From a virus (taxonomy: Duplodnaviria > Heunggongvirae > Uroviricota > Caudoviricetes), in IMG/VR virus record IMGVR_UViG_3300017700_000469, positions 1-64,000 of that record: a DNA stretch of 64,000 bases. One strand, 5' to 3'. Below the pieces are notes generated by a model. The model was given only the letters and a program-made list of their open reading frames with translations, did not search any database and was not told the DNA's origin. Positions 10,009 to 47,195 of this stretch are shown here, one piece after another (position 1 is the first letter of the stretch; every line of letters starts with the position of its first letter). The position numbers and the translations under genes were made by a program.

Positions 10009-10416
10009 TTAACAGCTTGGACTTGCGACCGGGGAGATCAGCTTGCCCTCTAGTTCGAGGGTGATGGTGACAGAGGTACCGCCGGGCTCTGAGGCCCCGA
10101 CGCCGCTGCCGAGTTCAAAGGGGTTGGACGTGAAGTACACGTCCCAGACTTCGCCCTTGTGGTTGGTCAATCGAATCAGTGCTCGGTAGTACGAGAGGAT
10201 GAAGGCTCGGAGTTCGAGCGACTTCATCCGGCTGAGCACGAACGTGTACTGAAGTTTCGAGCGGTCGTTCGACTTGACGTAGGAGTACAGCGTGCTGTTC
10301 ATCGACTGCTTGACGTCGATTGAATGGCTCGGCTTCTCGCTGTCACCGAACTTAGGGTTCGGCAAGATCGTCGTCGTGGTGAGACTTGGAACCGGAGCTT
10401 GAAGGATTACGCTCAT
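10009..10416 (-). CDS. small tail-tip associated protein (hypothetical)
   Basis: Translationally coupled between two tail-tip genes. Confidence 0.4.
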   Translation of the reverse strand: MSVILQAPVPSLTTTTILPNPKFGDSEKPSHSIDVKQSMNSTLYSYVKSNDRSKLQYTFVLSRMKSLELRAFILSYYRALIRLTNHKGEVWDVYFTSNPFELGSGVGASEPGGTSVTITLELEGKLISPVASPSC

Positions 10417-11609
10417 GCGAGAACTCCCTGGAACTCGAACGCCACGCTACGATCTCCACGTCCGACGTGCGTGATCTGAGCGTCGGGCGTCGTGATGATT
10501 CCTCGCCACTGCCGACTCTCCCAGTCGAGCAACCCGATCTCTTGACCGAGCGAATCTCGAAGGAACTGAATCAGGTCGGCGGCTTGGGCGGGCTTGAGTG
10601 AATCGACCTGGACGACGAGCGTCTGGGTCTTCGGCCACTTCGGATCGGCGAACACGATCAACGTGCCGCCGCGAGTCAGACGATTGATGCGGTTGAAGTT
10701 CAGCCGATCCTTGTCGCCTAGCTCCGGGTTGCGGAGCACGAGCGTCGTAGTCGGCGAGACATACGGATACGTGAGCGTCAGCACACCCTTGGTGAGCGTC
10801 GGGACCGTGAGGCTCGGCGGCGTGTACGACGGATCGGTACTCGACCCGACGAACGGACTGTAGAGCTTCTCGGTGCAACCTCGGCCGCCGATGTAATACG
10901 TGACCGACTGGTTCAAGCCGAGCACGTCGGCGAGAGTACGTCGCAGCACGAGTTGCCCCGTGGTGGACTGCACGAGTGCTAACGTCTGATCGACGTCGCC
11001 ACCCTTGCCTACCGTGGCGGTCTGGACGAGCGCGAGCACGTCTACGATCGCGTTGCGGCGTTCACCCGTCTGTGTGAAGGCGAGGGTCTGAGTCACCGAG
11101 CGTGTGAACGTCAAGCCGGCACGATCCGACAGCACCAACGCCTGGGCGACGAAGAGGTTGGCCACACCGACGTGACCGCCGTCATCGTTCTGCACGAAGT
11201 TCAGCGATTGGCCGACACTCACCCGGATCGCACCACGAGCCACGGCGTCTTGAACGAACGCTAGAGACTGAGTGACGTTGACCTGCTTGATGTTGTTGCC
11301 GACGTCTTGGACGAATACGAGCGTGTCGTTCACCGTGCGGGAGACACTGCGGCTGACCGTCGTCGCCTGCATCAACGCCAAGGCGTTGGAAGCGGTCATG
11401 TGCCGATGGACGACGGCCGTGGCACTTTGCGAGAAGGCGAGCGTGTCGTCGCCGTGCGGGTTGACCGGCTCGAAGGTCGCCGACTGAGAGAAGGATAGGG
11501 ATTGATTGACTTCCTGTTCGAGCGACGGATCGGGCGGCGCACCGAGGAAGGCTAATACGATGTTCCCGAGCCGCGAATCTGCTGTACCCAGCTTGCCGGT
11601 AAATGGCAT
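10413..11609 (-). CDS. Tail-tip/baseplate protein with internal ~20-aa peptide repeats (Q[ST]LAF[VT]Q...)
   Basis: Repeated QSLAFVQDAV / QSLNFVQND / QTLAFTQTG / QTLALVQST units. Position in the tail module. Confidence 0.45.
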   Translation of the reverse strand: MPFTGKLGTADSRLGNIVLAFLGAPPDPSLEQEVNQSLSFSQSATFEPVNPHGDDTLAFSQSATAVVHRHMTASNALALMQATTVSRSVSRTVNDTLVFVQDVGNNIKQVNVTQSLAFVQDAVARGAIRVSVGQSLNFVQNDDGGHVGVANLFVAQALVLSDRAGLTFTRSVTQTLAFTQTGERRNAIVDVLALVQTATVGKGGDVDQTLALVQSTTGQLVLRRTLADVLGLNQSVTYYIGGRGCTEKLYSPFVGSSTDPSYTPPSLTVPTLTKGVLTLTYPYVSPTTTLVLRNPELGDKDRLNFNRINRLTRGGTLIVFADPKWPKTQTLVVQVDSLKPAQAADLIQFLRDSLGQEIGLLDWESRQWRGIITTPDAQITHVGRGDRSVAFEFQGVLA

Positions 11610-20589: not shown

Positions 20590-22137
20590 TTACCCTTGCA
20601 GCACGACCGCGAGACGGCTGTCGAGCATCGCGACACCGGCGAGGATGTCGAGATTCACGACGGTACCGCCGGCTTGGATGTCGTATTGCATCACGACGCG
20701 CATCGCGATGTCGTTGGCGACGGCGATGTCCGACATCGCACCCGACCGATCGCTCGGCAGGGCCAACGGACGAGTGACCAACGCGAGGGCTTCGCGGTGG
20801 AACGCCCAGTTGAACGAACCATACGGGCCGGGGAACGCGGCGGCGTCGTTGACCAACGCGACTTCGAGCGGCCGGTCGAGGACCAAGTCGCAGTTCGAGC
20901 CGTTGTCGGTCGATTCGATGATCGTGTAGACCCGGCGGCTACCGCCGGTCCCGAAGGCGATCATCTGGCCGACTTGCGGAGCCTTGCCGCTGGTGTACCC
21001 ATCGACGCGAACGTCTTCCGAGTAACCCGCGACGTACAGGCCGCCGGCGTCGTCCACCGCACACGCCTTGAAGCGCGTGGTGGCCGCAGCCGCCAGCGTG
21101 GCGTACTTGTTGGCTTCGTTCAGGGTGACGCCCGTCGTCGATCCGGCCTTGGCCGTGATGTACGTCGGTTGGTCGTTACCCGCCACGACGAAGAACTCAC
21201 CGACCGTCACGCCGGCGACGCCGTTCGTGATGGTCTGCGAGGCCGGGGTGACACCCGCCGCGAGGGCGTTGTCCACCGTGGCCGTGACGTCGGTGTCGGC
21301 ACCGGTCGCCATGCTGTTCACGTTCTGGTCCATGAACGTGTTGAAGCCGAGGATGCGGCCGAGCAAGGCGTTTTCCAACGCCGTGCCGCCGTCGCCGCGC
21401 TCGTTGGCCTTGATGAAGAGTTCGTTCTTCAACAGAGCCGTTTCGCTGGACGGCGAGAGGACGAGGTTGCGGTCGGTCGGATACGCCTTGTTGACGTTCA
21501 GGATTTCCCGCGCTTCGAGCACGGCGTCCTTGCTGTTCGCGGCGGTCAAGTTGCTCAGGCGACCGACACGGCTGGTCGGGCCACCGAGGAACTGATGGAT
21601 GCGGCCGAGGACGGCGCGATCCACACCGCGAGCGATGGTCTGCATCGCCGGCAAGAGGTACACGGTCACGAGTTCTTGGAACGACTTGCTGGCTTCGCCG
21701 TCCTTGATCGTGAACGAGTTGTAGAACCACTGATCGAGCGGCACGCGGACGTTCGTCGCGTTCGCGTCTTGCTGCGTCAGCGTGGTGCCGTCCTTCTTAC
21801 GCTTGATCTTGAACGTGCCCGGCCGACGAGTGTTGACCACGTCACCGTAGTCACGGATTTCGTCTTGGAAGTCGCGGTGGACCAAGTTGGCCGCGACCAT
21901 GTTCTCTTCGAGGATCACGAGACCCTCTTGAGCCCAGATTTCCGGGATGAAGGCGTCGTTGTCGTTCGCGAAGCAAGCGACGGCGGCGAGGGAGAGGTAC
22001 ATATTCTTCACAGACAGGTCTCCGAATGGAGTAGAGGAATGAGGGCGAGAGAAGCTCGCACCACAAAGGAAAGGGCCTCGCGAAATGCGAAGCCCTTGAT
22101 GGGGCGTGAACACGCCCTCAGAGAACGATCGTTTCAA
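20590..22137 (-). CDS. Major capsid protein (likely true start at internal ATG 22002, MYLSLAAV...)
   Basis: ~470-515 aa, directly downstream of the scaffold gene and followed by a terminator. N-terminal FIPEIWAQEG...LVHRDF motif. The upstream codon at 22137 is TTG. Confidence 0.7.
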   Translation of the reverse strand: MKRSFSEGVFTPHQGLRISRGPFLCGASFSRPHSSTPFGDLSVKNMYLSLAAVACFANDNDAFIPEIWAQEGLVILEENMVAANLVHRDFQDEIRDYGDVVNTRRPGTFKIKRKKDGTTLTQQDANATNVRVPLDQWFYNSFTIKDGEASKSFQELVTVYLLPAMQTIARGVDRAVLGRIHQFLGGPTSRVGRLSNLTAANSKDAVLEAREILNVNKAYPTDRNLVLSPSSETALLKNELFIKANERGDGGTALENALLGRILGFNTFMDQNVNSMATGADTDVTATVDNALAAGVTPASQTITNGVAGVTVGEFFVVAGNDQPTYITAKAGSTTGVTLNEANKYATLAAAATTRFKACAVDDAGGLYVAGYSEDVRVDGYTSGKAPQVGQMIAFGTGGSRRVYTIIESTDNGSNCDLVLDRPLEVALVNDAAAFPGPYGSFNWAFHREALALVTRPLALPSDRSGAMSDIAVANDIAMRVVMQYDIQAGGTVVNLDILAGVAMLDSRLAVVLQG

Positions 22138-23114: not shown

Positions 23115-23642
23115 TCACGAGATGCGAGCGATCTTGATGGAGTCACCGTCACGTAAGAACGGGCGAATGAGTCGCCACGCCATCGCGTTGGGTACACCGT
23201 TAATCAAGTGTTCGATCGGAACTTGCGACCGTTGGTAGGTAGTGCGAACGGACGAGTAGCCTTGGCTGATGATGCCGAGGTTCTCCAACTCCAACTCCGG
23301 GTCTTTCCCGTCGAGCAGAGAGTGAGCGATCTCATAACAGGCACGACGGATCGCATCGGGGACGTCGGTGTCTGAGCCTCGCGGGAACTCAAGAGGTTGC
23401 GAGGCTTCGGCTTCCCGTATCTGCTCTTGCGTGGCGTCCGAGTCGGACTCAAGCAGAGCGTGAACGGCGGCCTTGTTGCCTTTGTAGTTCAGCGTGTCGA
23501 TGATCTGCGTAGCGGCCCAAAGAGCCTTCGGCCGATCGGCGACTGCTGCACCGGTCCAGGCGGTTTCATGGAGGCGATGATCGAAGTAGTCATACGCCTC
23601 TTGGAGAGTGCCGTAGTATTCGGTGTTGATCGACAACGTCAC
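23115..23642 (-). CDS. head morphogenesis protein (hypothetical) between portal and scaffold
   Basis: Position only. Its start overlaps the portal stop. Confidence 0.35.
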   Translation of the reverse strand: MTLSINTEYYGTLQEAYDYFDHRLHETAWTGAAVADRPKALWAATQIIDTLNYKGNKAAVHALLESDSDATQEQIREAEASQPLEFPRGSDTDVPDAIRRACYEIAHSLLDGKDPELELENLGIISQGYSSVRTTYQRSQVPIEHLINGVPNAMAWRLIRPFLRDGDSIKIARIS

Positions 23643-25456
23643 TCTCCCTTAGCTGTGGCACCCGAGACTCGGGCACCCTTGTTCTTGCCACGCTGACGGC
23701 GAGCCCTGCCGCCTTGCAGCGTTGGGTCACTCGATGCGGCCTTCTCGGCAGCGGCGGCCTTCGGGTCTGCCGAAAGGTCGGCCACACCGCGAGCGCCCGG
23801 ATCGCCTGCACCCGGTTTGACGGATGCTTGGGCTTGGGCGACTCGTGCAGCACGAGCCGCGTGATCGAGACGAGCTTGTAGAAAGATGCCTTGTGCGAAG
23901 CCCAAGGCTTCGGACCCGGTCTTCTCGTCGCAAAGTCCGGCTTCAACCGCAGCGATGATCGTGTCGGGATCGGATGTGAGGTAATCACAGCCGTCGATCT
24001 CGGCATGAATCTTGTCGATTGTTCCGACATCGACCTTGCCGCTGAGCAGCACGGTGATGATGTTCTTCGCGATCTCGATCTTGGCCTTGCGGCCTGGGAC
24101 CGTGTAGATGAGCTTGGCCAGTGCGGCGCACTCTTCGATACGGTCGGCGTCGGTCTTCAGCGAGTAGCGGTCCGGGTACTTGACCGTGGCCACTTCGCGT
24201 TCTTTGACGTTCTTGTTTTCGTAGGCCGCCCAGAACTGAGCGATCTGTTGCTCGGCACTCGCGAGGACCAAGCCGATGTAGGACAGGCCGGCTTCCAGCC
24301 CTTGGTTGTCGAGCGACTTCGACTCAGCGGAGCCGCGAGTCGCGATCGATTGGACGGACAGGTTGACCAGCTTGCGGATGTCGGCTTCGAGCTTCTCTTG
24401 GAGACCGATGGAGGCTAGGAGCGGCTCGGGCGACGGGTTAATGAACGCCGGGGCGTCCATGTCCTTACCGTAAGCACGACCATTACCCGCACCGACCATG
24501 ATGCTCTGTTCGCCGGCACCTTGACCGCCGGTGGTCGCCGTGCCGTCTGCGGTGCTCGCTTGCTTCAGGTGCGTCCCGATGGCCCGCATGTCCCGTTGTT
24601 CGATGTAGAACGGGAAGTTGGACTGAAGGGCGTACCACACGTCGCGAGACGCGAGGTTGAGCAGAGCGACTTGGTGTCGCCACACGTCTTTGATTAAGCT
24701 GTCGCCGATGTCTGGCATGACGAACGGGATGCGATTCAGTTCGAGTCGCACCGGGCCGCCTGGGTTGCCGTCTCGGTCGATCTCTTCGCCTGCGGCGTTG
24801 AAGAACTGAAGCATGACGTAGCCGTCTTCGAGCCACAGCAGACGAAACCGTTGGAAGGTTTGCATCGGCAGCATCGTGCGGCGGTCATAGTCCATGCAGG
24901 AATCGCGGACGAGCAACGCTTGGAACTCGGACGGGTTGTCCGCGCTGGCACTCGTGAACGACAGGATGTCTTCGACTTGGTAGGCGTAGAGATAGGGACG
25001 GGCACCGATCGAGTCGGCCACCGATTCACCGACCACCACTGAGTTGTCCACGTAGATGCCGCATCGACCCATCACAAGCAGGTCGCTGAGCACCTTCATC
25101 CCGAGGAAGGCGCTCATCGTGTTTCCACGACGATCGACCCCGAGGTTCTGGCCGGCGACGGCTTGACGGTAAGCAATGCTGCCACCGGTTCGCGTGACGT
25201 CGCACATCCGTTGAAAGATGCTGTTGCGAATGTCGTTGACTGCGGACTTAGCGAAGGCCGGCACGGGTGTGACCCGCTTGCGGGTCTGGAAGTCTTCGTT
25301 GTCTTCGCGGCTGTTGAAGCGTTCGAGAAACTTGTTCTTGAAGTCTTCGCCACCTTGATACGTGAGACGCCAGTTCTCCCAGTCGTTCATGGAGGCCATG
25401 AAGCTGGGGTGCCGACTATCGATAATCCGAGTCGGAGCGACTTGTGTCAGTGCCAT
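23639..25456 (-). CDS. Portal protein
   Basis: 605 aa, immediately downstream of TerL. Gly/Ala/Arg-rich charged C-terminal tail. Confidence 0.65.
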   Translation of the reverse strand: MALTQVAPTRIIDSRHPSFMASMNDWENWRLTYQGGEDFKNKFLERFNSREDNEDFQTRKRVTPVPAFAKSAVNDIRNSIFQRMCDVTRTGGSIAYRQAVAGQNLGVDRRGNTMSAFLGMKVLSDLLVMGRCGIYVDNSVVVGESVADSIGARPYLYAYQVEDILSFTSASADNPSEFQALLVRDSCMDYDRRTMLPMQTFQRFRLLWLEDGYVMLQFFNAAGEEIDRDGNPGGPVRLELNRIPFVMPDIGDSLIKDVWRHQVALLNLASRDVWYALQSNFPFYIEQRDMRAIGTHLKQASTADGTATTGGQGAGEQSIMVGAGNGRAYGKDMDAPAFINPSPEPLLASIGLQEKLEADIRKLVNLSVQSIATRGSAESKSLDNQGLEAGLSYIGLVLASAEQQIAQFWAAYENKNVKEREVATVKYPDRYSLKTDADRIEECAALAKLIYTVPGRKAKIEIAKNIITVLLSGKVDVGTIDKIHAEIDGCDYLTSDPDTIIAAVEAGLCDEKTGSEALGFAQGIFLQARLDHAARAARVAQAQASVKPGAGDPGARGVADLSADPKAAAAEKAASSDPTLQGGRARRQRGKNKGARVSGATAKGE

Positions 25457-25471
25457 TGGCTCGAACTCCGA

Positions 25472-27163
25472 CTAGAGAAATTTCTTGATGTCCAAGTTCG
25501 TCTGCTGGGCCGCACAAAGCGGTAGCGCGATCTCGCTGTAAGTTCGAGCGTGGGCAAAGTGGTCTGGACCCGTCTTCACGTAATCCAAAACCGGGTTGCC
25601 GTCGTCGTCTCGAACGTAGGTTGATGTGAGAGCCTTCATGTGCTCGCGGTACTCAAGCGGGATGTCGCTCGGGAGCCAGAGGCGGGTCGGGTCGGTCTTG
25701 AAACGGCCGAGTGAGGCACTCAGCCAGTTCGACCGATCAACGGTCGCGACGGGGGCACCGTCTTCCTCTTCGCTCAATGCGATTTCTTTGGCGGACGTTC
25801 CTCGGCGGTACTGGCAGAGCCAGACGTAACCAGGGAACCGACGAGCGAAGCGTCGAGCTTCCATTCGGCCTGGATCGGCATCCACGACGCAGGCGAGGAC
25901 TTGCCACTCCCGCATCAGGTTGTCGACCGTCTTGTCGAAGTCTTCGTCAAGGAACTTATGCACGTAGAGCGTCTTGCCGCGAGCGGCGACGTTCAGGTCT
26001 AGGCCCCACTTGTCGAAGAACCATTCGGTCACTTCGGCATAGTTCCATTTCCCGCGATCGATACCCATCGTGATGATGCGACCTGCTTGGCTCGGCCGGC
26101 AGTCGTTCATCATGTAGCCGCCGCCAGCGGCGACGGATCGATCGAGCATCACGTCGTCTACCTTCGCACCGTCACCGATGAAGGGCAGACCGAGCTTCGA
26201 GTTGTGGAACTCTTTCTGAGCGAGTTCATCGCCGAGGCCACGGAAGTGGGCGACGACGAGTTCGCCAGGATTGATAGTGAAGCTGTAAAGCTGATTGATG
26301 TAGAAGCCACGCACGTCCGGGTTGGCGTTCTTGTCGAAGGCTTCCCAGTAGGCATTCTTGAGGAAGTTCGGCTTGTCTCGCTGATCGAGGCGGCCCTTAC
26401 ATTCCTTGCACTTCAGGTATGACTCTTTGCAGCGGACGTCCGTGACGTGCTCGCCGATGATCTCGATGCACTCGGGCCAGACCAACTCGGTCAGTCGCGA
26501 GCAGCACGGACACTTGAACACGAAGTGTTCTTGCGTCGTGCCCATGTACAGTTTGTGGATACCGAAGTTCGGAATGGTCGGCGTCGAGATGCCCCAAACG
26601 TGCTTCTCGATCTTGCCAGACAACCGCTCTAAGGCGAGCCACACTTGCTTCTGTTCCATCCGGTCCACTTCGTCGAGAAGTAGTTCGGACACAGGAATCG
26701 ACACGAGGTTGCTGTCGCCGCGCGAGCCGCGAATGTACAACGTGTTCGATCCGGCTTGCTTCAAGTTCACCGCATTGGTGTCGGTGAACAGCGACTTCAG
26801 GTACGGGCTCAAGCTGAGGGCACCGCCGAAGCGAGCCTTGCTGAAGTCGGAAGCTGTCAGCGACGTGGGGAGAACGTAGAGTACGTCTCGTTTCAGCTTG
26901 TCGATGATGTAGAGGGCGCGGTTGATCGCAACCTCGGTCACACCAAGCTGAGCACCCTTCATCGCGTAGTTGTAGGACGCCTTGGAATCGTGCATCGCGA
27001 CCACCCACGGGTGGAGGCGTGCCGAATACGGGGCGGGTTGGTTCGTCTCAACCCCTTGGATGATTCGCCGGCGTTCAGCCCAACGGAAACAACTCGTCAG
27101 CGTCCGATTCTTCAGGCCGTCCACGAGGGACTCCCGGAAATCGTCGATTAGTTTGTCGCTCAT
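25472..27163 (-). CDS. Terminase large subunit (GpA-like, with a Zn-finger insertion)
   Basis: 563 aa with an ATPase N-terminal half and a nuclease C-terminal half. FKCPCCSRL...CKECKGRL zinc-ribbon element as in lambda GpA-type terminases. Directly upstream of the portal. Confidence 0.85.
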   Translation of the reverse strand: MSDKLIDDFRESLVDGLKNRTLTSCFRWAERRRIIQGVETNQPAPYSARLHPWVVAMHDSKASYNYAMKGAQLGVTEVAINRALYIIDKLKRDVLYVLPTSLTASDFSKARFGGALSLSPYLKSLFTDTNAVNLKQAGSNTLYIRGSRGDSNLVSIPVSELLLDEVDRMEQKQVWLALERLSGKIEKHVWGISTPTIPNFGIHKLYMGTTQEHFVFKCPCCSRLTELVWPECIEIIGEHVTDVRCKESYLKCKECKGRLDQRDKPNFLKNAYWEAFDKNANPDVRGFYINQLYSFTINPGELVVAHFRGLGDELAQKEFHNSKLGLPFIGDGAKVDDVMLDRSVAAGGGYMMNDCRPSQAGRIITMGIDRGKWNYAEVTEWFFDKWGLDLNVAARGKTLYVHKFLDEDFDKTVDNLMREWQVLACVVDADPGRMEARRFARRFPGYVWLCQYRRGTSAKEIALSEEEDGAPVATVDRSNWLSASLGRFKTDPTRLWLPSDIPLEYREHMKALTSTYVRDDDGNPVLDYVKTGPDHFAHARTYSEIALPLCAAQQTNLDIKKFL

Positions 27164-27263
27164 TGTGCGCCGTGTGTATTTGGGATCGCTTCATGGAGCG
27201 GGTTCGCTTGATGTGCCAGCGGCACTAAAGTTGTGGCGTTCTTCCCGCGCGATCCCATTAAAG

Positions 27264-27295
27264 AAGCCCAGGCCGGATGTGCCCGGCCTGGGCTT
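27264..27295 (-). terminator. Hairpin (13-bp perfect stem) between the Gly/Thr-rich protein gene and the terminase
   Basis: aagcccaggccgg atgtgc ccggcctgggctt. On the - strand it is followed by ctttaat. It may separate the paralog-array operon from the late operon. Confidence 0.4.
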
Positions 27296-27324
27296 AGATG
27301 TTGATGCAGACTTGGGAGCTTGGC

Positions 27325-28035
27325 TTAGTAGCCGAGCTTGGTGAGCAGGGTCGCTTCGGCCGTCGTGCTGAGATCGGCGATCGCGGCTTCGCGGACGAGA
27401 GCACGGATCGTGTCTTCGCCCATCGAGAACGGATACTTCCCGCGAGGACACCGAGCGGTGACGCTGGAAGGATCGGAGCCTTGGTCGGGGATCGTGCCGC
27501 CGAGAATGCCGAGGGCGAAGAGCAGAGCCCAGGCCGTGCGTTCGGCTTGACCGGCCGTCGTGACCGAGATCACACCGGCGGAACCGCCGCCGGTGAGGCC
27601 GGCACCGTTGATGGTCGTGAGAGCGTGGTTCGCACCCTTGACCGAGTTGCCGCTGAACGTCAACACGACCGGCGTCGTGGTGAGCGGGCCACCGGAGACG
27701 GCGATGTCGCCGTTCGTCCAACCGGTGATGGAAGCCGACGTGGCGGCCGTGTTGATCGCGGAGAGGATCGCGGCGGCGTTGCCGTCGTGAGCGATGTTCG
27801 CCGTCGTGAAGGTCTGGCCGCTTCGCAGCGTGACCGTCAGCGTGTAGTTGCCGCCGCTGACGGTGGCGACGTGGATCGCGATCGACTGCACTTCGTTCCG
27901 TACCGCACAGTTGGTCGGAACGTCGAAGTCACCGATCTGTTGCAGGAGGGCCTTCAGATCACGGATGCCGGGGCGACCCGTGTGGTTGTCTTCGATACTG
28001 GCCGAGCTAGCGATGATGGATGCGATTACCGACAT
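27325..28035 (-). CDS. Gly/Thr/Ala-rich beta-rich hypothetical protein (fibre/adhesin-like; distant relative of the downstream paralog family?)
   Basis: TGWTNGDIAVSGGPLTTTPVVLTFSG loosely resembles the TGQWD..GGLT..LTTT.P core of the paralog array. Confidence 0.4.
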   Translation of the reverse strand: MSVIASIIASSASIEDNHTGRPGIRDLKALLQQIGDFDVPTNCAVRNEVQSIAIHVATVSGGNYTLTVTLRSGQTFTTANIAHDGNAAAILSAINTAATSASITGWTNGDIAVSGGPLTTTPVVLTFSGNSVKGANHALTTINGAGLTGGGSAGVISVTTAGQAERTAWALLFALGILGGTIPDQGSDPSSVTARCPRGKYPFSMGEDTIRALVREAAIADLSTTAEATLLTKLGY

Positions 28036-28104
28036 GGTAATGGTGGTTCCTGGTTGTGTTGGGCGGATCGACCGCGATGTGGATTCGGCGACGGCCGAGA
28101 AGCG

Positions 28105-28578
28105 TTACAGAAGGACCGGCGACTTGATGCTGAGCAACATCGTCGTGGCGGTGAGTGCGACACCGACTTCGACGACGAACTGCGTCACCGTGACGGGCGC
28201 TGTCGTCGTGAGCATTCCGGCGGTAGCCGCACTGAGGTAGTAGACGGAACCCGGCGTCAAGCCACCGGTCTGTCCCGTCACTGCATCCCATTGGCCGGTC
28301 GTTGCCGACAGTTGGCCGGCGGATTGGCCGACGATGTCACCGGCTGTGGCCACCGTGACGTCGGTCACGAGACCTGTTACACGCGATGTGCCCGCTGCGT
28401 CGGCTTTAGCCTTGTCGGCTTTGCCGTTTGATTTGCCATAGATCGGTGTGCCGATTACGACGGCACCGGCGTTGTCATTGACGGTGTCGAAGTTCGTGCC
28501 GATGCCATCGGCACCAGGAGTGCCGGGGCCGCCACCGCCACCGCCACCGCCACCGCCTGTCATGGAAAAGGTGCTCAT
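28105..28578 (-). CDS. Paralog-array member 1 (poly-Gly N-terminus; conserved C-terminal TTGQWD...GGLTPGSVYYL module)
   Basis: ATTGQWDAVTGQTGGLTPGSVYYLSAATAGMLTTTAPVTVTQFVVEVGVAL. Ten consecutive Gly at residues 8-17. Confidence 0.55.
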   Translation of the reverse strand: MSTFSMTGGGGGGGGGGPGTPGADGIGTNFDTVNDNAGAVVIGTPIYGKSNGKADKAKADAAGTSRVTGLVTDVTVATAGDIVGQSAGQLSATTGQWDAVTGQTGGLTPGSVYYLSAATAGMLTTTAPVTVTQFVVEVGVALTATTMLLSIKSPVLL

Positions 28579-28581
28579 GGC

Positions 28582-28914
28582 TTACACCCCCATCCAGGCA
28601 ACATCTTGGTCAACGGCGGACGAGATCACGTAGATCGCGGTCGGATCGTCGATCGGAATGAGAACCGATTGGCCGGGCGGGATCGGTAGGCCGCCGGTAC
28701 CGGGATCACTGTCGGCCGTCACGCCTTTGCGGCCGACCCACACACAGGCGGTGTTCGCAGACGGGTCTTCGCTGCCGGGAGTGCGAACAAGAATCCCCTT
28801 GTCGAACTTCAGACCAAGGCTTGTCAGCGGTACGGCCGTGGTACCCACGACTGTGTGACCGTGAGCGAATCGCGAAGGTTCGGACGTCTCTTTCGAGACT
28901 TGAATAACGGACAT
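28582..28914 (-). CDS. small beta-rich hypothetical protein inside the paralog array (not a family member)
   Basis: 110 aa with no shared C-terminal module. Tightly packed between array members. Confidence 0.4.
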   Translation of the reverse strand: MSVIQVSKETSEPSRFAHGHTVVGTTAVPLTSLGLKFDKGILVRTPGSEDPSANTACVWVGRKGVTADSDPGTGGLPIPPGQSVLIPIDDPTAIYVISSAVDQDVAWMGV

Positions 28915-28925
28915 CGTGGCTATCC

Positions 28926-29408
28926 TTACGGAATGATTCTTGGTGGTTGTGGGAGCACCAGCAGTTCGGTGCTACTGATGGCGAGGCCCACGATGGTGAC
29001 GTACTGGCCGCTTGTAGACGGCGCTGTCTTTGTGAGTCGTTGTGCGGTGGTCGGGTCGAGGTAGTACCAAGAACCGGGTGTCAGCCCGCCGGACTGGCCG
29101 GTGATAGAGTCCCAAAGGGCCGTCGCTTGGACGTAGATGCCTCGGAAGATCATCGGACCGGGCGAGCTTGTGCCCAACGTAGTACCAGCGAGGCCGACGA
29201 CTGTGGCTGCGGCGGCCGACGTGGCAATCCCCTTGGTGACGACGCCGGCGGCCGAGGCGTACACCGCGCCGCCTGTGTTGATGCTGCCGGTGTTTGCTTT
29301 GCATGAACCGACGTCTTGCGGTGTGTAGTCCGCATTGCCGAAGGATTGCAGCAGGTCGATGAATGTTCCCGTGCCAAGGCCGAGGAAGCGTCGTAGAGCA
29401 GCGGGCAT
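28926..29408 (-). CDS. Paralog-array member 2
   Basis: ALWDSITGQSGGLTPGSWYYLDPTTAQRLTKTAPSTSGQYVTIVGLAISSTELLVLPQPP. Confidence 0.55.
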   Translation of the reverse strand: MPAALRRFLGLGTGTFIDLLQSFGNADYTPQDVGSCKANTGSINTGGAVYASAAGVVTKGIATSAAAATVVGLAGTTLGTSSPGPMIFRGIYVQATALWDSITGQSGGLTPGSWYYLDPTTAQRLTKTAPSTSGQYVTIVGLAISSTELLVLPQPPRIIP

Positions 29409-29417
29409 GTTGACGCC

Positions 29418-29888
29418 TTACAGTGCGATTGGTGGTTGGAGCAAGATGGCAAGCTCGGTCGTGCTGAGAGCGATACCGACTTGAACCACGAACTGACCGG
29501 GTGTGGTTGGCTTGGTTGTGGTCAGCTTTCCGGCGGTGGCCGGGTCGAGATAGTAGACGGAGCCCGAAGTCAGACCGCCGCTCTGTCCGGTCACTACATC
29601 CCACTGGCCGGTAGTCGCCTCGAATCTGCCAGCGACTTGAACGATGCCCGTCCCGGCCGAGGCGATGGACGTGTCGAAGACAAGGCCGAAGACACTCGCG
29701 GTGCCCGCAGCATCAGCCCGAGCTAAGTCGAAGTGGCCACTCGTGGTCTTCGGATAGACGACGCTGCAAATGACCGCCGCACCCGCGTTGTCATTGATCT
29801 TGGACGTCGCAAGGTGGTCCCAGATGTCACCGGCTTGTAGTTGGCGGGTGTATCCACCGGACCAAACAAGTCCTTTTCTCAATGCCAT
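29418..29888 (-). CDS. Paralog-array member 3
   Basis: QLQAGDIWD N-terminal motif. ATTGQWDVVTGQSGGLTSGSVYYLDPATAGKLTTTKPTTPGQFVVQVGIALSTTELAILLQPPIAL. Confidence 0.6.
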   Translation of the reverse strand: MALRKGLVWSGGYTRQLQAGDIWDHLATSKINDNAGAAVICSVVYPKTTSGHFDLARADAAGTASVFGLVFDTSIASAGTGIVQVAGRFEATTGQWDVVTGQSGGLTSGSVYYLDPATAGKLTTTKPTTPGQFVVQVGIALSTTELAILLQPPIAL

Positions 29889-29897
29889 TGGATTACC

Positions 29898-30377
29898 TTA
29901 AAGTTGGATCGGAGGTTGCAACTCGATGTTCATCTGCGTCAGACTGATCGCGTATCCGACGCGGACGATCCATTGCCCCGGAGTCGTAGGAGCGGTAGTC
30001 GTCATCTTCCCGGCCGTTGTCGGGTCAAGGTAATAGACTGAGGCCGTCACGAGACCGGCGGTGCCGACGATCGCGTTCCACTCTGTCGTCGTCAGTGTGA
30101 GAACGCCGTCGCAGACGACGATGCCATTACCACCGCTGGCCGTACTCGCACTGAGCATCAGGCCGATCAACTCGGACGTTGAGATGGAATCGGCTCGCCC
30201 CTTGTCGATGTGGTCGGCACTCGACACATAAACCGGCGTACCGCAAACCAATGCACCGGCGTTGGCGTTAGTCATCGTGAACTTGACCAGTTCACTGATC
30301 GGACTATCGACCGTGTCGCCGGCCTGAAGCTGTTGGACTTGACCGTCAACCATGACCAGCGGGATTCGAGTGGCCAT
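29898..30377 (-). CDS. Paralog-array member 4
   Basis: DGQVQQLQAGDTVD N-terminal motif. TTTEWNAIVGTAGLVTASVYYLDPTTAGKMTTTAPTTPGQWIVRVGYAISLTQMNIELQPPIQL. Confidence 0.6.
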   Translation of the reverse strand: MATRIPLVMVDGQVQQLQAGDTVDSPISELVKFTMTNANAGALVCGTPVYVSSADHIDKGRADSISTSELIGLMLSASTASGGNGIVVCDGVLTLTTTEWNAIVGTAGLVTASVYYLDPTTAGKMTTTAPTTPGQWIVRVGYAISLTQMNIELQPPIQL

Positions 30378-30393
30378 TGTTTGGCTCCAACAC

Positions 30394-30909
30394 TTACAAG
30401 TAGATCGAGGCGATGACTTTCTTCTGGGGCAGCAAGAGCAGCTTGGTGCTACTCAGTGCGATTCCCATGCGGACATACTGGGCACTGACGGTCGGCGGCA
30501 GGCCCGCGAACAACTTACCGGAGTTGTTGGAGTTGAATGAGTACACGCTGCCCGCAATCAGGCCGCCGCTACCGCTCGTTACCACGGCGTCCCATTGACC
30601 CGTGGTCAACTCGACGACGCCGCGAATCTGCACGTTACCTGTGCCGGACGCTAAGATTCCGCCCGACTCGGTAACGATGCCGAACGGGCGCTCGGGCGGG
30701 TTGGCCAATGAGAGGACTTGACGCAAGGTTGCGCTACCGTTGGTCATCGCGACTGGCAACCCGATTGCAAACGTGCCACCCGTTCCGTTTCGGCAGACCA
30801 CTTGGCGGCCTTCGACGTAAGCGGGAAGAGCCGGCATCGTGTCATTGGCGGTGTCGAGTTGTTTCGGCTGGCCGTCGTACAACGCCAACGCTCGTCGTCC
30901 CATTACCAT
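30394..30909 (-). CDS. Paralog-array member 5 (most divergent)
   Basis: DGQPKQLDTANDT N-terminus. LTTGQWDAVVTSGSGGLIAGSVYSF...LSSTKLLLLPQ. Confidence 0.5.
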   Translation of the reverse strand: MVMGRRALALYDGQPKQLDTANDTMPALPAYVEGRQVVCRNGTGGTFAIGLPVAMTNGSATLRQVLSLANPPERPFGIVTESGGILASGTGNVQIRGVVELTTGQWDAVVTSGSGGLIAGSVYSFNSNNSGKLFAGLPPTVSAQYVRMGIALSSTKLLLLPQKKVIASIYL

Positions 30910-30921
30910 GACTGCACCTGC

Positions 30922-31356
30922 TTATTTGCGGACGGCCGGCGTCACTTCGACGGCGGCTTTGGTGACGGGCGCTTGTTCGACGGCGGCTTCACCGACTGGT
31001 TTAACGTCGGCAGGCTTTTCATCAGCAGCGACATCGGTGACATGGACGGCGGCATCGAGAAGCTGCCGGACGGCGGGCTCGACAACGGGAGTCTCGACGC
31101 GAGGTTTGACGGGTTCGGGCTCGACTTCGAGTTCGACTTCATGGACGGTTCGCTCGCGGAGGATCATGGTCTCGCTGAGATGCACGCCATCGGGCGCGAC
31201 GAACACGGCGGAAAGTTCCCCATCGGCGAGTTCGTCGGGGATTTCCAAAGTGCTGTGCGTGTCGTCAAGCATCCACTCCAACTGTTTGGTCGGGTGGTCC
31301 AGCATGATCTTGACCAGCGGGTAGTTGCTGTTTTTCGGAAGCGAGAGTAGCGACAT
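30922..31356 (-). CDS. acidic Pro/Val/Glu-rich hypothetical protein
   Basis: 144-aa ORF. Its C-terminus is a PEPVKP/VEP low-complexity region. It overlaps the next ORF by ~90 nt, so the true start may be an internal Met. Confidence 0.35.
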   Translation of the reverse strand: MSLLSLPKNSNYPLVKIMLDHPTKQLEWMLDDTHSTLEIPDELADGELSAVFVAPDGVHLSETMILRERTVHEVELEVEPEPVKPRVETPVVEPAVRQLLDAAVHVTDVAADEKPADVKPVGEAAVEQAPVTKAAVEVTPAVRK

Positions 31357-31662
31357 GGGCGAGTCGGCCTTCTGTTTGGTGGATGACGGTGTTGAGCCGA
31401 TCGCGCATCTGCACGAGAGCTTCGAGAGGGTTTCCGGGCATGGCCAAGAGCGTGTAGCCCTCGATCATCCCGATGCACGAGCTTGTACCGAACAAGACGT
31501 GCTTCCAGAGCCTCAGTCCCTCTTCCTCACTGGTCGCGAAGTTGAACTTCACGCTGGCGTGCTCGGGCGTGGGAACGGGCGGTCGTGTGATTTTGGGAGC
31601 CATGAATTGCGACGTCGGCGGTGGGCAGTTGTTGCAAGGGCGCTTGTTGCGAACGGCCATCG

Positions 31663-31977
31663 TTACTTCCTTCGCAGGCGGAACAGAAAGACGATCACCT
31701 TCAGCGCGGCCATGATCTCGGACCAGTGCAGGACGATGAAGGCGACGATCACACCGATCGGCACCCAGGTCGTCTTGCGACCGGTTGCACGAACGTGGAT
31801 GCGTTGCACACGTCGCTCGAAGGCGGCGACAGCGTTGACCGCTCGGCCTCGCCCGTCGAACTGCACTGGGTTCTTGAACAGCGTGTCGATCATCGTGGCT
31901 TCGGCGTCGGTGGCGTTGGCCACTCGGGTCTGAGCCAGTCGCATCGCAGCTTCAAAGTCTTTTAGAGTCGTTGCCAT
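31663..31977 (-). CDS. tail-anchored membrane protein (two C-terminal hydrophobic segments, basic end; holin-like?)
   Basis: ...VPIGVIVAFIVLHWSEIMAALKVIVFLFRLRRK. Confidence 0.4.
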   Translation of the reverse strand: MATTLKDFEAAMRLAQTRVANATDAEATMIDTLFKNPVQFDGRGRAVNAVAAFERRVQRIHVRATGRKTTWVPIGVIVAFIVLHWSEIMAALKVIVFLFRLRRK

Positions 31978-32339
31978 CGTTTGCTCGGCACCAGTTTGCG
32001 GTAGAGGACGTTGGCGTTCTGCGTCCTGAAGGTCTCGACACCCCTCGTCACGATGACGTAGGTGGGCACGCTTTCGACACCGTACTTGGCGGCCAACTCG
32101 GGCTGCTTGTCGATGTCCACCCGAACGACTTTCACACCGCTGTCTTCAACGGCGTCAACGATCGGGGCTTGAATCTTGCAGGGGTTACACCAAGTCGCAT
32201 GGAAGTCGTAGACGACTAGCTGCGTGACGGGCTTGACCGGAGCAGGCTTCACCGGCGGCTTGGGCTTCTCGCATCCGATGAGGGCGGCGATCGCGATCAG
32301 AGCGGCGTACAGAGCGAGGAAGTGAACGAGTCGCTTCAT
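31962..32339 (-). CDS. Thioredoxin-fold lipoprotein (start refined to MKRLVHFL)
   Basis: Active site WCNPCK (CxxC). Signal peptide with a LIGC lipobox. RBS AAAAGGAAA precedes the ATG at 32339. Confidence 0.75.
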   Translation of the reverse strand: MKRLVHFLALYAALIAIAALIGCEKPKPPVKPAPVKPVTQLVVYDFHATWCNPCKIQAPIVDAVEDSGVKVVRVDIDKQPELAAKYGVESVPTYVIVTRGVETFRTQNANVLYRKLVPSKRWQRL

Positions 32340-32419
32340 GGTGGTTTCCTTTTCGGTTATCGAGCCCACTCGGTTGAATGGGCTGGACAACCGACCGTCG
32401 CGAGACGGTCGGAAGCGTG

Positions 32420-33647: not shown

Positions 33648-34241
33648 TTAGTTCAGCGGCAGCGGCGGTGCGGGCGTATAGACGGGCGTGACGGCCCAGC
33701 TATGACTGTTGAGCCATTCGGCAACGAACGTCGCTCGCGGCACCCAGATGATTCCCTGGGTCTGGTTGTTGTCGAGAATGCCGGCCCACTTCGCGTCGAA
33801 GTGAACCAGGGCGACCATGTGTCGGCCGCCCATCACGGTGACGCCGCAGCCTCGACGTGTTGAGCAGGCCCATTCGAGGAACCGCACATCACCCTTCTGC
33901 GACGTGTAGGCGTACTTGACGCCGGCTCGATCGAACTTGGCTGCGAGATCGACGTCCCACTCGCCATCACCGTTGTGCGTCCGCCAATACTCGGCGAGCT
34001 TCATCTGGCCTTGCCAGCGGAAGAGGCTCGTCATCGTGGCGTGGACGCAACTACCTTGTCCCATCGGACCGAGCCAGTTGGACTGACGCAGGCTGAGAGG
34101 CAGGTTGACTGTCGGGTACTCGCCCTTGAAGACCGGGACGGCCTTCGTGCGAATCACGACAGGGACGTTCGGCTTGCAGCCGGTGACGGCTAGCGAGGCG
34201 ATCGCGAGGTAGACGATTGCAAGTCGGAAGAGACGAATCAT
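33648..34241 (-). CDS. Lipoprotein with a putative papain-like/C39-like cysteine peptidase domain (candidate cell-wall hydrolase)
   Basis: LAVTGC lipobox. GQGSCVHATMTSLFRWQG (Cys motif resembling C39_2 CGPTSLAMVL) with downstream GGRHMVALVHFD (His). Confidence 0.4.
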   Translation of the reverse strand: MIRLFRLAIVYLAIASLAVTGCKPNVPVVIRTKAVPVFKGEYPTVNLPLSLRQSNWLGPMGQGSCVHATMTSLFRWQGQMKLAEYWRTHNGDGEWDVDLAAKFDRAGVKYAYTSQKGDVRFLEWACSTRRGCGVTVMGGRHMVALVHFDAKWAGILDNNQTQGIIWVPRATFVAEWLNSHSWAVTPVYTPAPPLPLN

Positions 34242-34858
34242 TTGAGCCTCATCGGTTTCTTGAGAATGCCCAAACGTCGCTCGGCCCGTGTGAACTTGTT
34301 AGGATTCCAGCGCGAGCCGCTGTCGGTTTGGAACAGGCCGATGTCGGCGTGCGCCGCAGCGCACCATTCCGAGCAGAAGAGAGAGTGCAGGTCTTCGTTC
34401 TGAAGATGCGACTCGATCCAGTTGAAGGCGTGTCCGCCGGATCGGAAGGCTCCGATCGTGTCGTAGGGCAGACCTAGCGTGGCGTGCAGGAAGTCAGTCA
34501 GCCGTGTTCGTTCGTGGTCGAAGAGGGGCCGGTATAAGGGATAATGCCAAACTTTGCCTCGATAGCCCTTGAGTCGGGTACCAAGGTCGTGCGCTTGGGA
34601 GCCACTGAAGACCTTACCGGCGATTTCGCAGGGTTCGTCATCCAGGGTCGTGGACTCGAAGAGTAGAAGGCGACCATCATGCTCACCCATAATCCCGACG
34701 TGGCTGATGGACCACCACGGGATTCCGTAAGTCGCGAGGTTGATGCCCCAGCTAACCCAGTTGTCACCGGTGAACCCGATGATGTCACCCGCCTGGATGA
34801 CTGACGGGTCGCGGATCGGCTTGCGGTTGAACATGAGACGCCTTCGCGAAGATTGCAC
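34238..34858 (-). CDS. Permuted papain-fold (His-then-Cys order, NlpC/P60- or C92-like) putative peptidase/amidase
   Basis: SISHVGIMGEHDG upstream of LFCSEWCAAAH. Overlaps the upstream peptidase gene. Confidence 0.35.
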   Translation of the reverse strand: MQSSRRRLMFNRKPIRDPSVIQAGDIIGFTGDNWVSWGINLATYGIPWWSISHVGIMGEHDGRLLLFESTTLDDEPCEIAGKVFSGSQAHDLGTRLKGYRGKVWHYPLYRPLFDHERTRLTDFLHATLGLPYDTIGAFRSGGHAFNWIESHLQNEDLHSLFCSEWCAAAHADIGLFQTDSGSRWNPNKFTRAERRLGILKKPMRLK

Positions 34859-35067: not shown

Positions 35068-35142
35068 AGAGCTAACGGAGGGAATCGAACCCACAACCTG
35101 CGGTTTACAAAACCGCTGCTCTGCCAGTTGAGCTACGCGAGC
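35068..35142 (-). tRNA. tRNA-Thr(TGT)-like; possibly a degenerate or pseudo tRNA
   Basis: Reverse complement gives GCTCGCG-TA-GCTC-AACTGGCA-GAGC-A-GCGGT-TTTGTAA-ACCGC-AGGTT-GTGGG-TTCGATT-CCCTC-CGTTAGC-T. Canonical D-arm, anticodon arm (TGT) and T-loop. One mismatch in the T-stem and one mismatch plus a G-U pair in the acceptor stem. Confidence 0.4.
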
Positions 35143-35390: not shown

Positions 35391-35467
<77 letters not shown>

Positions 35468-46421: not shown

Positions 46422-47120
46422 CTAAGCGACACTCTCGTCGTATCGCTTGAGAATCCGCCAAACGGCAACCGAAGTGAACGGCTTACCGGCCGTCGTCTGG
46501 TGATCTTCGTCGTTCAGCTTCTTTGCGATGACGGGTAGAGTGTCACCGGCCGCGTGCCACTCCCTGATCTTCGGAATGAGGAACGAATATGCCGACAGCG
46601 CCCGTTGGCTACGGACGATGGCCGAGTTCTTCGCGCCTTTCTTCCAGCCTCGCTTACCCTCTCGCCCCTTCCAGTGGTCCGGGCGGGCGGAACCGAGCAG
46701 CGTTCCATTCTTCTTAGCAACCGCCAGGGCGTCCTTGGTGCGGCGGCTCGTCATCGTGGCCTCGTTCTCGGCCACGGCCGCGAGGATATGGATCGTGAGA
46801 CGGGTGGCGTGTGGATTGTCACAGCAGACGAAATCGACGCCGCTGTTCATCAGTGCGGCCGTGAACTCCATGTTTCGGGACAGTCGATCGAGCTTGGCGA
46901 CTACGAGCGTGGCCTTGGCCAGCTTTGCATGGGCCAACGCCTTCTGAAGCTCGACGCGATCGGATCGCTTACCGGTCTCGACTTCGATATACTCGGCGAT
47001 GATCTTCCCATCGTTGTGTGCCGAGTAGTCGCCGACCGTCTTCTTCTGTGCGTCCAGACCGAGGCCGGATTGTCCTTGTTTCTTCGTGCTGACTCGGTAG
47101 TACGAGATAAATTTCTTCAT
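46422..47120 (-). CDS. Small serine recombinase (resolvase/invertase family; start refined to MKKFISYYRVSTKKQ)
   Basis: YYRVSTKKQ catalytic Ser motif, LVVAKLDRLSRN, C-terminal HTH-like region. 232 aa. Confidence 0.85.
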   Translation of the reverse strand: MKKFISYYRVSTKKQGQSGLGLDAQKKTVGDYSAHNDGKIIAEYIEVETGKRSDRVELQKALAHAKLAKATLVVAKLDRLSRNMEFTAALMNSGVDFVCCDNPHATRLTIHILAAVAENEATMTSRRTKDALAVAKKNGTLLGSARPDHWKGREGKRGWKKGAKNSAIVRSQRALSAYSFLIPKIREWHAAGDTLPVIAKKLNDEDHQTTAGKPFTSVAVWRILKRYDESVA

Positions 47121-47159
47121 GGAACGTCCGTGGTTCATGCCGCTGTTTCTGTCTACCCA

Positions 47160-47195
47160 TAACATTACATCGGCTTTGTCCGTTTGTCAAATTGT
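47160..47195 (-). promoter_or_regulatory. Recombinase promoter, a diverged member of the conserved promoter family (TTGACA-17-TAATGT)
   Basis: The - strand reads caatttgacaaacggacaaagccgatgtaatgtta, with TTTGAC..GACAAA half-sites. Confidence 0.4.

Follow-up and report, generated by a model that had tools for sequence, protein, structure and literature searches.

Five paralogous genes upstream of a phage terminase belong to a widespread, undescribed family of putative tail-fibre building blocks

Upstream of the large terminase gene in the 64,000-nucleotide stretch of phage DNA analyzed here (the window) lie five small paralogous genes, P1 to P5, whose products share a C-terminal domain of ~130 residues (the C domain) and, in four of the five, a short N-terminal motif (the N-motif). 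What are such proteins for? We think that they are stand-alone copies of an undescribed building block of tail fibres (that is, of receptor-binding proteins), acting as connector or knob subunits, and we give this reading a probability of about 0.5. The family is widespread, and no curated library names it: the Pfam, NCBIfam, and annotated PHROG models hold no match to its domain.

The array and its cassette

All five genes are on the minus strand, at the positions where an earlier note on this DNA had seen them. The first copy is P5 (30394-30909; 171 aa), the most diverged (family HMM, E 9e-44; N-motif HMM, E 8e-8; C-domain HMM, E 8e-36). It is followed by P4 (29898-30377; 159 aa), with a near-consensus N-motif, MATRIPLVMVDGQVQQLQAGDTVD (family HMM, E 1e-64; N-motif, E 1e-13), by P3 (29418-29888; 156 aa), the copy used for the structure model, and by P2 (28926-29408; 160 aa), in which the N-motif is strongly diverged (family HMM, E 3e-48; N-motif, E 4e-8). 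These four are of the type that we call N+C; P5 and P2 form long branches in a neighbor-joining tree. P1 (28105-28578; 157 aa) has the C domain only: a poly-Gly/Pro segment, GGGGGGGGGGPGTPG, replaces the N-motif, a search of P1 with the N-motif HMM gave no match, and the family HMM covers only positions 30-160 (E 3e-55); the domain itself is nearest to those of N+C-type proteins (55-62% identity).

The five are mutually homologous (pairwise BLASTP, E 1e-10 to 9e-43; 30-57% identity over aligned stretches), and because no DNA-level repeats were found between the copies, the duplications are old. Their composition (G 9-19%, T 8-16%, A 9-13%) bears out the Gly/Thr/Ala richness that had been remarked on, and the C-terminal motif given in the earlier note reads correctly in an alignment of the five. 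That note had counted five to seven members, three of them with the N-motif; five are real, and the family HMM finds only these five in all six frames of the window, whereas the motif, also real, is detectable in four (P2-P5; HMM E 4e-8 to 1e-13). A 236-aa ORF that had been offered as a distant member (X236, 27325-28035) aligns to the family with an hhalign probability of 0.05%, and a 110-aa ORF inside the array (X110, 28582-28914) with one of ~0%, so neither is counted here.

Both of these ORFs, likewise on the minus strand, are part of the same cassette. X110 encodes a jelly-roll protein and travels with the cassette in relatives. X236 matches phrog_10909 (“major tail protein”) weakly and has a segment in common with extended major-tail-like proteins of relatives; its homologs stand alongside the cassette at four loci (L014, L034, L041, and L068) and form a segment of larger ORFs at three others (L020, L022, and L029). 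Closing the cassette is a terminator-like hairpin (27264-27295, minus strand) with a perfect 13-bp stem, a 6-nt loop, and a weak U tract, which confirms the hairpin noted between array and terminase; the minus-strand RNA of 27164-27324 has a minimum free energy of −65 kcal/mol, where shuffled sequences average −45.4 (z = −4.9), and a second scan recovered the hairpin as a weaker site. Beyond it lies the large terminase (TerL) gene, of GpA type (25472-27163, minus strand; PF05876, E 5e-26; PF20454, E 1e-8; phrog_675, E 6e-77), and the array is thus upstream of TerL in transcription order, as had been proposed.

On the other side, at 30922-31660 on the minus strand, are two conserved small pre-terminase ORFs, X144 (30922-31356) and orf131 (31265-31660), whose homologs sit directly upstream of TerL, 385-700 bp away, at L034, L047, L080, L082, and L088. 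They have no PHROG assignment and are candidates for the small terminase (TerS) or its partner. The array belongs to an accessory cassette of ~3.6 kb, closed by the hairpin, that has been inserted between these ORFs and TerL, and the idea that it stands in the place of TerS does not survive, the pre-TerL position being held in relatives by homologs of orf131 and X144. As for P1-P5 being small terminases themselves, none of the five matches a terminase family, and the modelled P3 is predominantly β-stranded.

A modular family and its order of genes

P3 was modelled as a monomer (AF2 pLDDT 92.7). The C domain has the fold of a β-tulip joined to a second subdomain, as in gpD and Pam3 gp6, rather than as the C1q/TNF-like or β-helical fold that had been guessed, and all of the top matches are capsid decoration proteins, not fibres; the earlier suggestion of decoration proteins is right as to fold only. 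The N-motif, ~24 aa at the N terminus with the consensus MAxRKPLVIxxGQIQQLQAGDTLD, is predicted in the same model to be a β-hairpin. The β-tulip has already been described as a general module of protein-protein interaction in phages (PMC9942802), and it is known from the phi29 preneck appendage as well (PMC7602432).

At a threshold of E ≤ 1e-3, the family comprises 7,279 cluster representatives from siphophage, podophage, and jumbo-phage backgrounds, with hosts from Planctomycetota to Actinobacteria. Its architecture is modular: motif and domain occur together or apart, and there are proteins in which two to four domains stand in tandem or are strung out along a Ser/Ala-rich fibre, and others in which the C domain is fused to a collagen-like stalk. 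The proteins that have the C domain without the motif match PHROGs for “tail fiber protein” (E 4.8e-79), “tail protein,” and “collagen like minor tail.” Those that start with the motif and lack the domain form a set of 31 nonidentical proteins, and the 28 scanned against PHROG and Pfam include matches to “tail spike protein” (E 1.6e-37), “tail fiber protein,” and “virion structural protein,” as well as to β-propeller/BNR Pfams.

These parts keep an order. At 76 nonidentical viral loci and 11 loci from an independent genome collection, a tail-fibre-like protein with the C domain at its end comes first, then an N+C protein of ~160 aa, and last an N-motif protein that is tailspike-like or fibre-like. 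Counted in the viral loci, an ORF ending in the C domain precedes 88 of 104 N-motif ORFs within 200 bp, with no upstream C domain detectable for the other 16, and an N-motif ORF follows 90 of the 135 ORFs that end in the domain; the rule was replicated in all 11 genome loci, from roughly eight bacterial lineages. Xanthomonas phage BUDD offers an instance: the domain closes a fibre-like protein of 578 aa, and what follows is an annotated tail fibre, which begins with a stretch resembling the N-motif and finishes in a Peptidase_S74 chaperone. Among the roles imagined in the earlier note, it is therefore the fibre that has gained from these 87 loci, where the domain ends or punctuates tail-fibre-like proteins and the motif heads tailspike-like or fibre-like ones; no evidence was found for the anti-defence role that it had also entertained.

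The unit itself moves about. It lies in the tail module, in the gap between portal and adaptor, after the capsid gene, or before TerL; in many siphophage relatives it belongs to the tail module, flanked by the tape-measure protein and a 1002-aa tip protein, and here, as in many relatives, the cassette stands among head and packaging genes. This phage also departs from the canonical syntax. Four N+C genes come before the C-only gene, X144, without a C domain of its own, stands ahead of the first copy, P5, and the tail protein T398 lacks the domain that its counterparts in relatives carry. With four N+C copies and one C-only copy, all strongly diverged, the array is the most expanded that we have seen. 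The earlier note had reckoned that a match to a well-characterized family, with the array conserved as it is in many related phages, would make this ordinary structural content; we found no curated match, and none of the other loci among the 87 holds more than two N+C copies.

Among 56 other phages, single-copy N+C proteins show 53-68% identity whichever region is compared, whereas P1-P5, at 22-55%, have diverged from one another far more than have single-copy orthologs of unrelated phages. Between phages that lack BLAST-detectable capsid-protein similarity, N+C proteins are still ~50-58% identical; P3, for example, has 53% identity to the family member of a podovirus-like contig in which a BLAST search with the window's capsid protein turned up no relative. 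Judged from these sequences, such conservation suggests an adaptor.

Connector, adhesin, cement, or chaperone?

How might such parts fit together? In the reading that we prefer, the C domain would be a trimeric knob serving as a socket, and the N-motif probably a plug fitting the socket of the protein encoded before it. The upstream partner would be a tail-fibre-like base that ends in the domain and has no motif, the downstream partner a tailspike-like or fibre-like protein that begins with the motif and has no domain, and the ~160-aa N+C protein either a connector between the two or a terminal knob. P2-P5 would then be plug-and-socket copies and P1 a socket-only copy, and the five would most probably join up in series or combine in mixed trimers, giving the virion a short segmented fibre or a cluster of knobs. 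Several observations count against the model: the departure of this window from the canonical syntax, capsid proteins as the best structural matches, the head/packaging location of the cassette, and the 16 exceptions to the rule. The plug and socket consensus sequences are, moreover, near-identical across classes, which also counts against the model, since N+C proteins might then be expected to polymerize with themselves.

One could instead suppose that the pieces attach in parallel, with the N-motif as a common anchor to one conserved virion site (a baseplate or neck protein) and P1-P5 as alternative short fibres or adhesins standing side by side, their binding specificity set by the variable residues ~25-92. 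Alternative receptor-binding proteins do commonly share N-terminal anchors (PMC8262889, PMC12692247). It is in residues 25-92 and the N-motif that the paralogs diverge most, and nowhere does the 64-kb window contain a long C-terminated base from which a chain could grow, or an N-only tailspike. This account is unlikely in our judgment: it leaves unexplained both the regular placing of a C-ending ORF before an N-motif ORF (88/104 and 11/11) and the absence of the motif from C-only proteins, sipho-, podo-, and jumbo-phage backgrounds alike conserve the motif and the domain, and the single-copy N+C proteins are too conserved across hosts for receptor-specific adhesins.

The folds themselves raise the thought that P1-P5 are true capsid cement, gpD/Pam3-gp6-like trimers that would sit on three-fold and quasi-three-fold sites and bind the major capsid protein through an N-terminal arm, with paralogs for different quasi-equivalent sites or for heterotrimers, after the pattern of herpesvirus triplexes or the Borrelia BB1 decorators. 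The likeness to known cement proteins (lambda gpD, P74-26 gp87, Pam3 gp6, the HFTV1 capsid stabilisation protein, and mycobacteriophage Adjutor gp16) extends to a length of ~160 aa, a short N-terminal arm, a β-tulip, and a second subdomain (PMC9942802, PMC7602432), with the N-loop laid out as in Pam3 gp6, where 23 such residues make most of the capsid contacts (PMC9942802), and a “Dec-arm” principle has been described (PMC7602432). The cassette lies in the head/packaging region here, many relatives have it in the portal-adaptor gap or behind the capsid gene, and no other decoration gene is evident beside the capsid gene. The sequences themselves give a weak profile match, to the Pam3 cement protein, and at E 0.045, the best value obtained, it is not significant. 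What makes cement improbable is the rest of the family. Long tail-fibre-like proteins end in this domain or are punctuated by it, and its partners, headed by the N-motif, are tailspike-like; the unit is in the tail-tip module of at least 12 siphophage relatives and in a podovirus tail module; and at L037 the N-arm and the domain are at opposite ends of a 1000-aa fibre, so that both cannot bind the capsid. Nor is the gene tied to the major capsid protein in position or in co-evolution: N+C identity that is independent of capsid-protein relatedness is unexpected for a ligand of the capsid lattice.

It is very hard to believe that these are nonstructural assembly factors, of the Tfa/gp38 type or like the phi29 gp12 auto-chaperone, which would template the trimerization of neighboring fibres without entering the virion: as small genes placed just after fibre genes they do resemble those for tail-fibre assembly proteins, and the BUDD fibre does end in Peptidase_S74 where others end in the C domain, but the domain is also internal, N-terminal, and tandem within long fibres and so is not a cleaved C-terminal chaperone, the motif shared by small and tailspike-like proteins suggests incorporation rather than transient action, none of the scanned Pfam, NCBIfam, or PHROG models matches (tail-fibre-assembly families included), and five chaperones with no client fibre in the cassette are difficult to rationalize. 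To the chaperone class itself (Tfa, gp38, Peptidase_S74, and phi29 gp12 D4) the family shows no homology in those models, and its position is not an exclusively C-terminal, cleavable one.

Known couplings and what a new one would mean

In the branched receptor-binding proteins of Klebsiella and related phages (the KP32, K11, and KP34 types), RBP1 carries an anchor and a T4gp10-like branching domain, which receives a conserved N-terminal docking peptide of RBP2 (PMC6872550, PMC13352976). The connector would be a β-tulip-based analogue of these systems, which likewise have adjacent receptor-binding-protein genes, a short conserved N-terminal peptide downstream, a docking-type domain upstream, and mix-and-match modularity. 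The putative docking domain here differs in being a β-tulip and in lying at the C terminus of the upstream protein, and a free-standing plug-and-socket connector, which can be multiplied, is intercalated between the partners; docking is read from gene order. In phi29, the C-terminal domain of gp12 is an auto-cleaved chaperone and the base of the head fibre gp8.5 binds the capsid, whereas our domain, which may be repeated, internal, or free-standing, goes together with a conserved motif at the N terminus.

Fibres can also be encoded sequentially and assembled serially, as are the gp34-gp35-gp36-gp37 fibres of T4 and the donor-strand pilins of the chaperone-usher pathway. By analogy only, gene order here appears to mirror assembly order, and the syntax of socket-only, plug-and-socket, and plug-only proteins matches the division of donor-strand-exchange pili into tip, middle, and terminator subunits. 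The likeness is one of syntax and not of homology; strand complementation is hypothetical here, and the subunits are presumably trimers rather than monomers.

We offer the boldest form of the idea tentatively, as less probable than not: a hitherto unrecognized pan-phage coupling in which a plug hairpin would dock, donor-strand-like, on a β-tulip trimer and link fibre segments noncovalently, with the five paralogs of this Planctomycetota-type phage self-assembling in defined order as a segmented “beads-on-a-string” fibre. Such a fibre would be the noncovalent equivalent of the fused three- and four-domain proteins seen elsewhere, and a capsid-cement fold would be documented as having been exapted into tail fibres, indeed as their universal connector.

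At least 7,000 sequence clusters without a name in any curated library give the scale of the gap. If the plug-and-socket reading is right, receptor-binding proteins in environmental phages, a weak point of current annotation, would be located and put in order by a simple rule of sequence (C-terminated base, N+C connector, N-headed tailspike), and fibre swapping would gain a second naturally portable coupling system beside the T4gp10-like branching domain and its docking peptide. The five-copy array is a natural test bed for the evolution of specificity between near-identical plugs and sockets, and the family, if we are right, may define a new way for phages to snap the segments of their fibres together.

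An expanded array upstream of the terminase gene

All genes of the array region lie on the minus strand, and in transcription order the small pre-terminase ORF X144 (30922-31356) comes first, directly followed by P5 (30394-30909) and then by P4 (29898-30377), P3 (29418-29888), P2 (28926-29408), the non-family gene X110 (28582-28914), P1 (28105-28578) and a second non-family gene, X236 (27325-28035), after which come a hairpin (27295-27264), the GpA-type terminase gene TerL (25472-27163) and the portal gene (23639-25456). Spacing from P5 to P1 is 3-16 nt; the gap between P1 and X236 is 69 nt.

Are the five proteins really kin, and when did they part? P1-P5 match one another in BLASTP at E 1e-10 to 9e-43 (30-57% identity across aligned stretches), and a six-frame search of the 64-kb window with the family HMM finds exactly these five members. 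On such comparisons they are true paralogs, and the array described in the earlier note is largely confirmed. That note had also thought X236 a possible distant member, a status that HMM and hhalign comparisons deny to both X236 and X110. A sub-HMM for the ~24-aa N-terminal motif (N, the putative “plug”) matches P2-P5 alone in the window (E 4e-8 to 1e-13); in P1, a poly-Gly/Pro stretch replaces it ahead of the ~130-aa beta-tulip domain (C, the putative “socket”). The duplications must be old, because we found no DNA-level repeats between the copies and because the five do not form a single clade when joined with relatives in a neighbour-joining tree, which together rule out recent duplication or gene conversion. 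Identity among P1-P5 (22-55%) is far below that of between-phage orthologs, and the plug has diverged too. The idea that P1 is a collapsed ortholog of the C-only proteins with collagen stalks, which come after X110 in relatives, was likewise rejected, since the P1 domain is nearest to the N+C type.

The window shows the family in its most expanded form: four N+C genes and one C-only copy, against at most two N+C genes in every other locus (87 examined). Its order (four N+C genes, then X110, then C-only) is non-canonical, and searches of the 64 kb with the family and N-motif HMMs turned up neither an N-only tailspike nor a long base protein ending in C. No curated assignment came from scanning P1-P5, X110, X236 and X144 against Pfam, NCBIfam and PHROG, the sole match being a weak one to phrog_12121, of unknown function; a solved-structure sequence search with X110 and X236 gave no match. 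X110 is modelled as a confident jelly-roll (pLDDT 94.9), whose fold matches (generic jelly-roll/cupin) are non-specific and reveal no anchor function. Homologs of X110 and X236 often accompany the unit in relatives. In three related loci (L087 8001-12594, L088, L089), X110 homologs lie just downstream of the portal gene, followed by a pair of collagen-like proteins (264 aa and ~690-730 aa) without the C domain and then, inside the head gene block, by a glycosyltransferase (PF00534), which might point to glycosylation of virion or fibre.

Insertion and genomic surroundings

Relatives whose TerL, portal and capsid genes are homologous carry the unit in four different places: the tail module, the gap between portal and adaptor, downstream of the capsid gene, and upstream of TerL. 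In L034, L047, L080, L082 and L088, homologs of X144 and of its neighbour orf131 (31265-31660) are found 385-700 bp ahead of TerL; the corresponding distance in the window is 4.1 kb. By this gene order, the unit in the window is an insertion, its block ending in the hairpin; as it lies between orf131/X144 and TerL, it does not replace the small terminase gene (TerS), in whose expected place the earlier note had seen it. PHROG scans of the pre-terminase ORFs identified no TerS, and the small ORFs just upstream of the array are candidates by position. The hairpin, a 13-bp perfect stem (27295-27264, minus; z = -4.9) in the intergenic region before TerL, became convincing only after RNA folding; a terminator scan was not above chance, and a sigma-70 promoter scan gave no match.

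Several neighbouring features deserve mention. orf131 and X144 (30922-31660, minus) overlap by 92 nt in different frames, both with homologs in relatives, and the pre-terminase block holds a thioredoxin-like gene (WCNPC motif, phrog_22; 31962-32390, minus), whose position is kept in L008, L010, L047, L082 and L088. At the start of the late block, two genes (33648-34858, minus; 206 and 197 aa) have 53-60% identity with counterparts on podovirus-like contigs (L004, L006, L024) that share no other gene with the window phage; the pair looks like a mosaic module, and one of the two has a weak PHROG match to “enoyl-CoA hydratase-like”. Just upstream of the late gene block lie tRNA-Thr(TGT) (35069-35142, minus) and tRNA-Met(CAT) (35391-35467, minus). 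Replication and recombination genes (1032-5926, plus; 46422-47165, minus) include a 914-aa DUF5906 primase/helicase-like protein, a deoxynucleotide monophosphate kinase, an RNase_T-type exonuclease and a serine resolvase; on related contig L001, the pair of kinase and exonuclease flanks the tail module as well. A contig from a Thermoguttaceae (Planctomycetota) MAG, JBDKTJ010000060, is a clear relative (capsid protein 65%, portal 56% identical) whose genes keep to the canonical order (portal, X110, a C-only protein of 657 aa, N+C), which suggests a planctomycete host.

A proposed grammar of plugs and sockets

A word-indexed search returned 345 relatives, nearly all of 156-161 aa and every one “hypothetical”, and an exhaustive profile search returned 7,279 cluster representatives at E<=1e-3 (513 at E<=1e-30). 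Many members are long proteins, in which the domain may be C-terminal, repeated 2-4 times in tandem, set at intervals along Ser/Ala-rich fibres or N-terminal to collagen-like stalks; its internal and tandem occurrences rule out the reading of a cleaved C-terminal auto-chaperone. Some members (P0126, P0127, P0133, P0136, P0142) are single polypeptides with 3-4 domain copies, covalent “beads on a string” versions of the tandem genes, and in P0126 an N-motif-like element (…DGTALKYKTLTSGNNI…) precedes each copy. A second recurrent lead, F/P-x-WDG-(T/S)…(S/A)EI(I/V)A(I/L), heads C-only proteins in L020, L022, L029, L041, L068 and L007, and P0126; it may be another virion anchor.

When the profile was split into its N-motif (~24 aa) and C domain (~130 aa) and mapped on 76 non-identical IMG/VR loci, one order recurred: a variable protein ending exactly in C and without N, then the ~160-aa N+C protein, then a protein that starts with N and continues for 100-1300 unrelated residues. 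In L004/L005, for example, the C-only, N+C and N-only proteins have 184, 160 and 441 aa. In these loci an ORF ending in C lies within 200 bp upstream of 88 of the 104 N-bearing ORFs, and an N-bearing ORF comes next after 90 of the 135 ORFs ending in C. When genome assemblies of bacteria and archaea were scanned as an independent set, 11 loci emerged (Dehalococcoidia, a cyanobacterium, Thermoguttaceae, an actinobacterium, sphingomonads, Polaromonas, Chloroflexales and Bacteroidia), with C-only directly upstream of N+C in all 11 and an N-only ORF next in four. Single-copy N+C proteins from very different phages and hosts keep 53-68% identity in each region.

The partner proteins belong to the tail. 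Those with N alone match the PHROG “tail spike protein” (E 1.6e-37), as well as “tail fiber protein”, “minor tail protein”, “virion structural protein” and beta-propeller and BNR Pfams; those with C alone match “tail fiber protein” (E 4.8e-79), “tail protein” and “collagen like minor tail”. Among cultured phages only Xanthomonas phages BUDD and X1 matched; in BUDD, a 578-aa fibre-like protein with the domain at its end is followed by an annotated tail fibre of 1386 aa, which starts with an N-motif-like stretch and closes with a Peptidase_S74 chaperone. With its series of adaptor, scaffold, capsid protein (20590-22137), 1268-aa tape-measure protein and then T192, T302, T398, T135 and T1002, the window phage is a siphophage. 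At least 12 relatives whose tail genes are homologous have an extended version of its tail protein T398, ending in the domain and followed by the N+C gene inside the tail-tip module; the tail module of a podovirus-like contig carries the C-only, N+C and N-headed triple too. The window's own T398 (10413-11609, minus) lacks the C domain, stopping before it, and has degenerate short N-terminal repeats (LAFSQSAT / LxFVQ); homologs in L001 (7781-9985), L026, L057 and L059 are 500-970 aa, end in the beta-tulip domain and have clear RVTRQYVEVL-type repeats instead.

Two possible roles: capsid cement or fibre coupling

The capsid-cement reading, in which P1-P5 would decorate the head, keeps real weight, given the head-proximal location of the array and the fold. 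AlphaFold2, from a 61-sequence alignment, models P3 confidently (pLDDT 92.7, pTM 0.80), with a beta-hairpin at residues 7-16 and a largely beta domain after it. P3 has a layout in common with the cement protein Pam3 gp6, in which an N-loop of 23 residues comes before a beta-tulip and a C-terminal beta domain (PMC9942802); further fold matches are T1, BB1, TW1, YSD1, lambda gpD and herpesvirus triplex proteins. By sequence, nothing in Pfam or NCBIfam and none of the annotated PHROGs matches the proteins, and their only PDB match, a marginal one, is Pam3 cement (E 0.045). The beta-tulip itself has been termed a general protein-protein interaction module by the Pam3 gp6 authors (PMC9942802; review PMC7602432).

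The earlier note had proposed fibre, decoration or receptor-binding modules; the fibre proposal is supported by the tail-protein partners, decoration only by the fold. For an anti-defence role, which it also entertained, nothing was found. For the small N+C protein, a structural adaptor seems to us a better reading than an adhesin specific to a receptor or a ligand of the capsid lattice, because the domain serves as a knob in fibres, because the N-motif heads tailspike-like proteins, because the small protein sits between C-ended and N-headed partners and because its single-copy form is so well conserved across phages and hosts.

Serial plug-and-socket assembly would predict just the grammar “socket only / plug+socket / plug only”, and we infer that the N-motif docks on the C domain. 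A functional analogue exists in the branching-domain/docking-peptide systems of Klebsiella phages, which are experimentally validated (PMC6872550, PMC13352976); the resemblance to T4 gp34-37 and to donor-strand pili is analogy only. Neither this family nor fibre coupling of the donor-strand type was described in the literature that we searched. In the window, P1-P5 may form a serial stack or mixed trimers, or may act in parallel. The family is large and unannotated; as we read it, P1-P5 belong to a modular tail-fibre coupling system built on the beta-tulip domain, in which plug would dock on socket.
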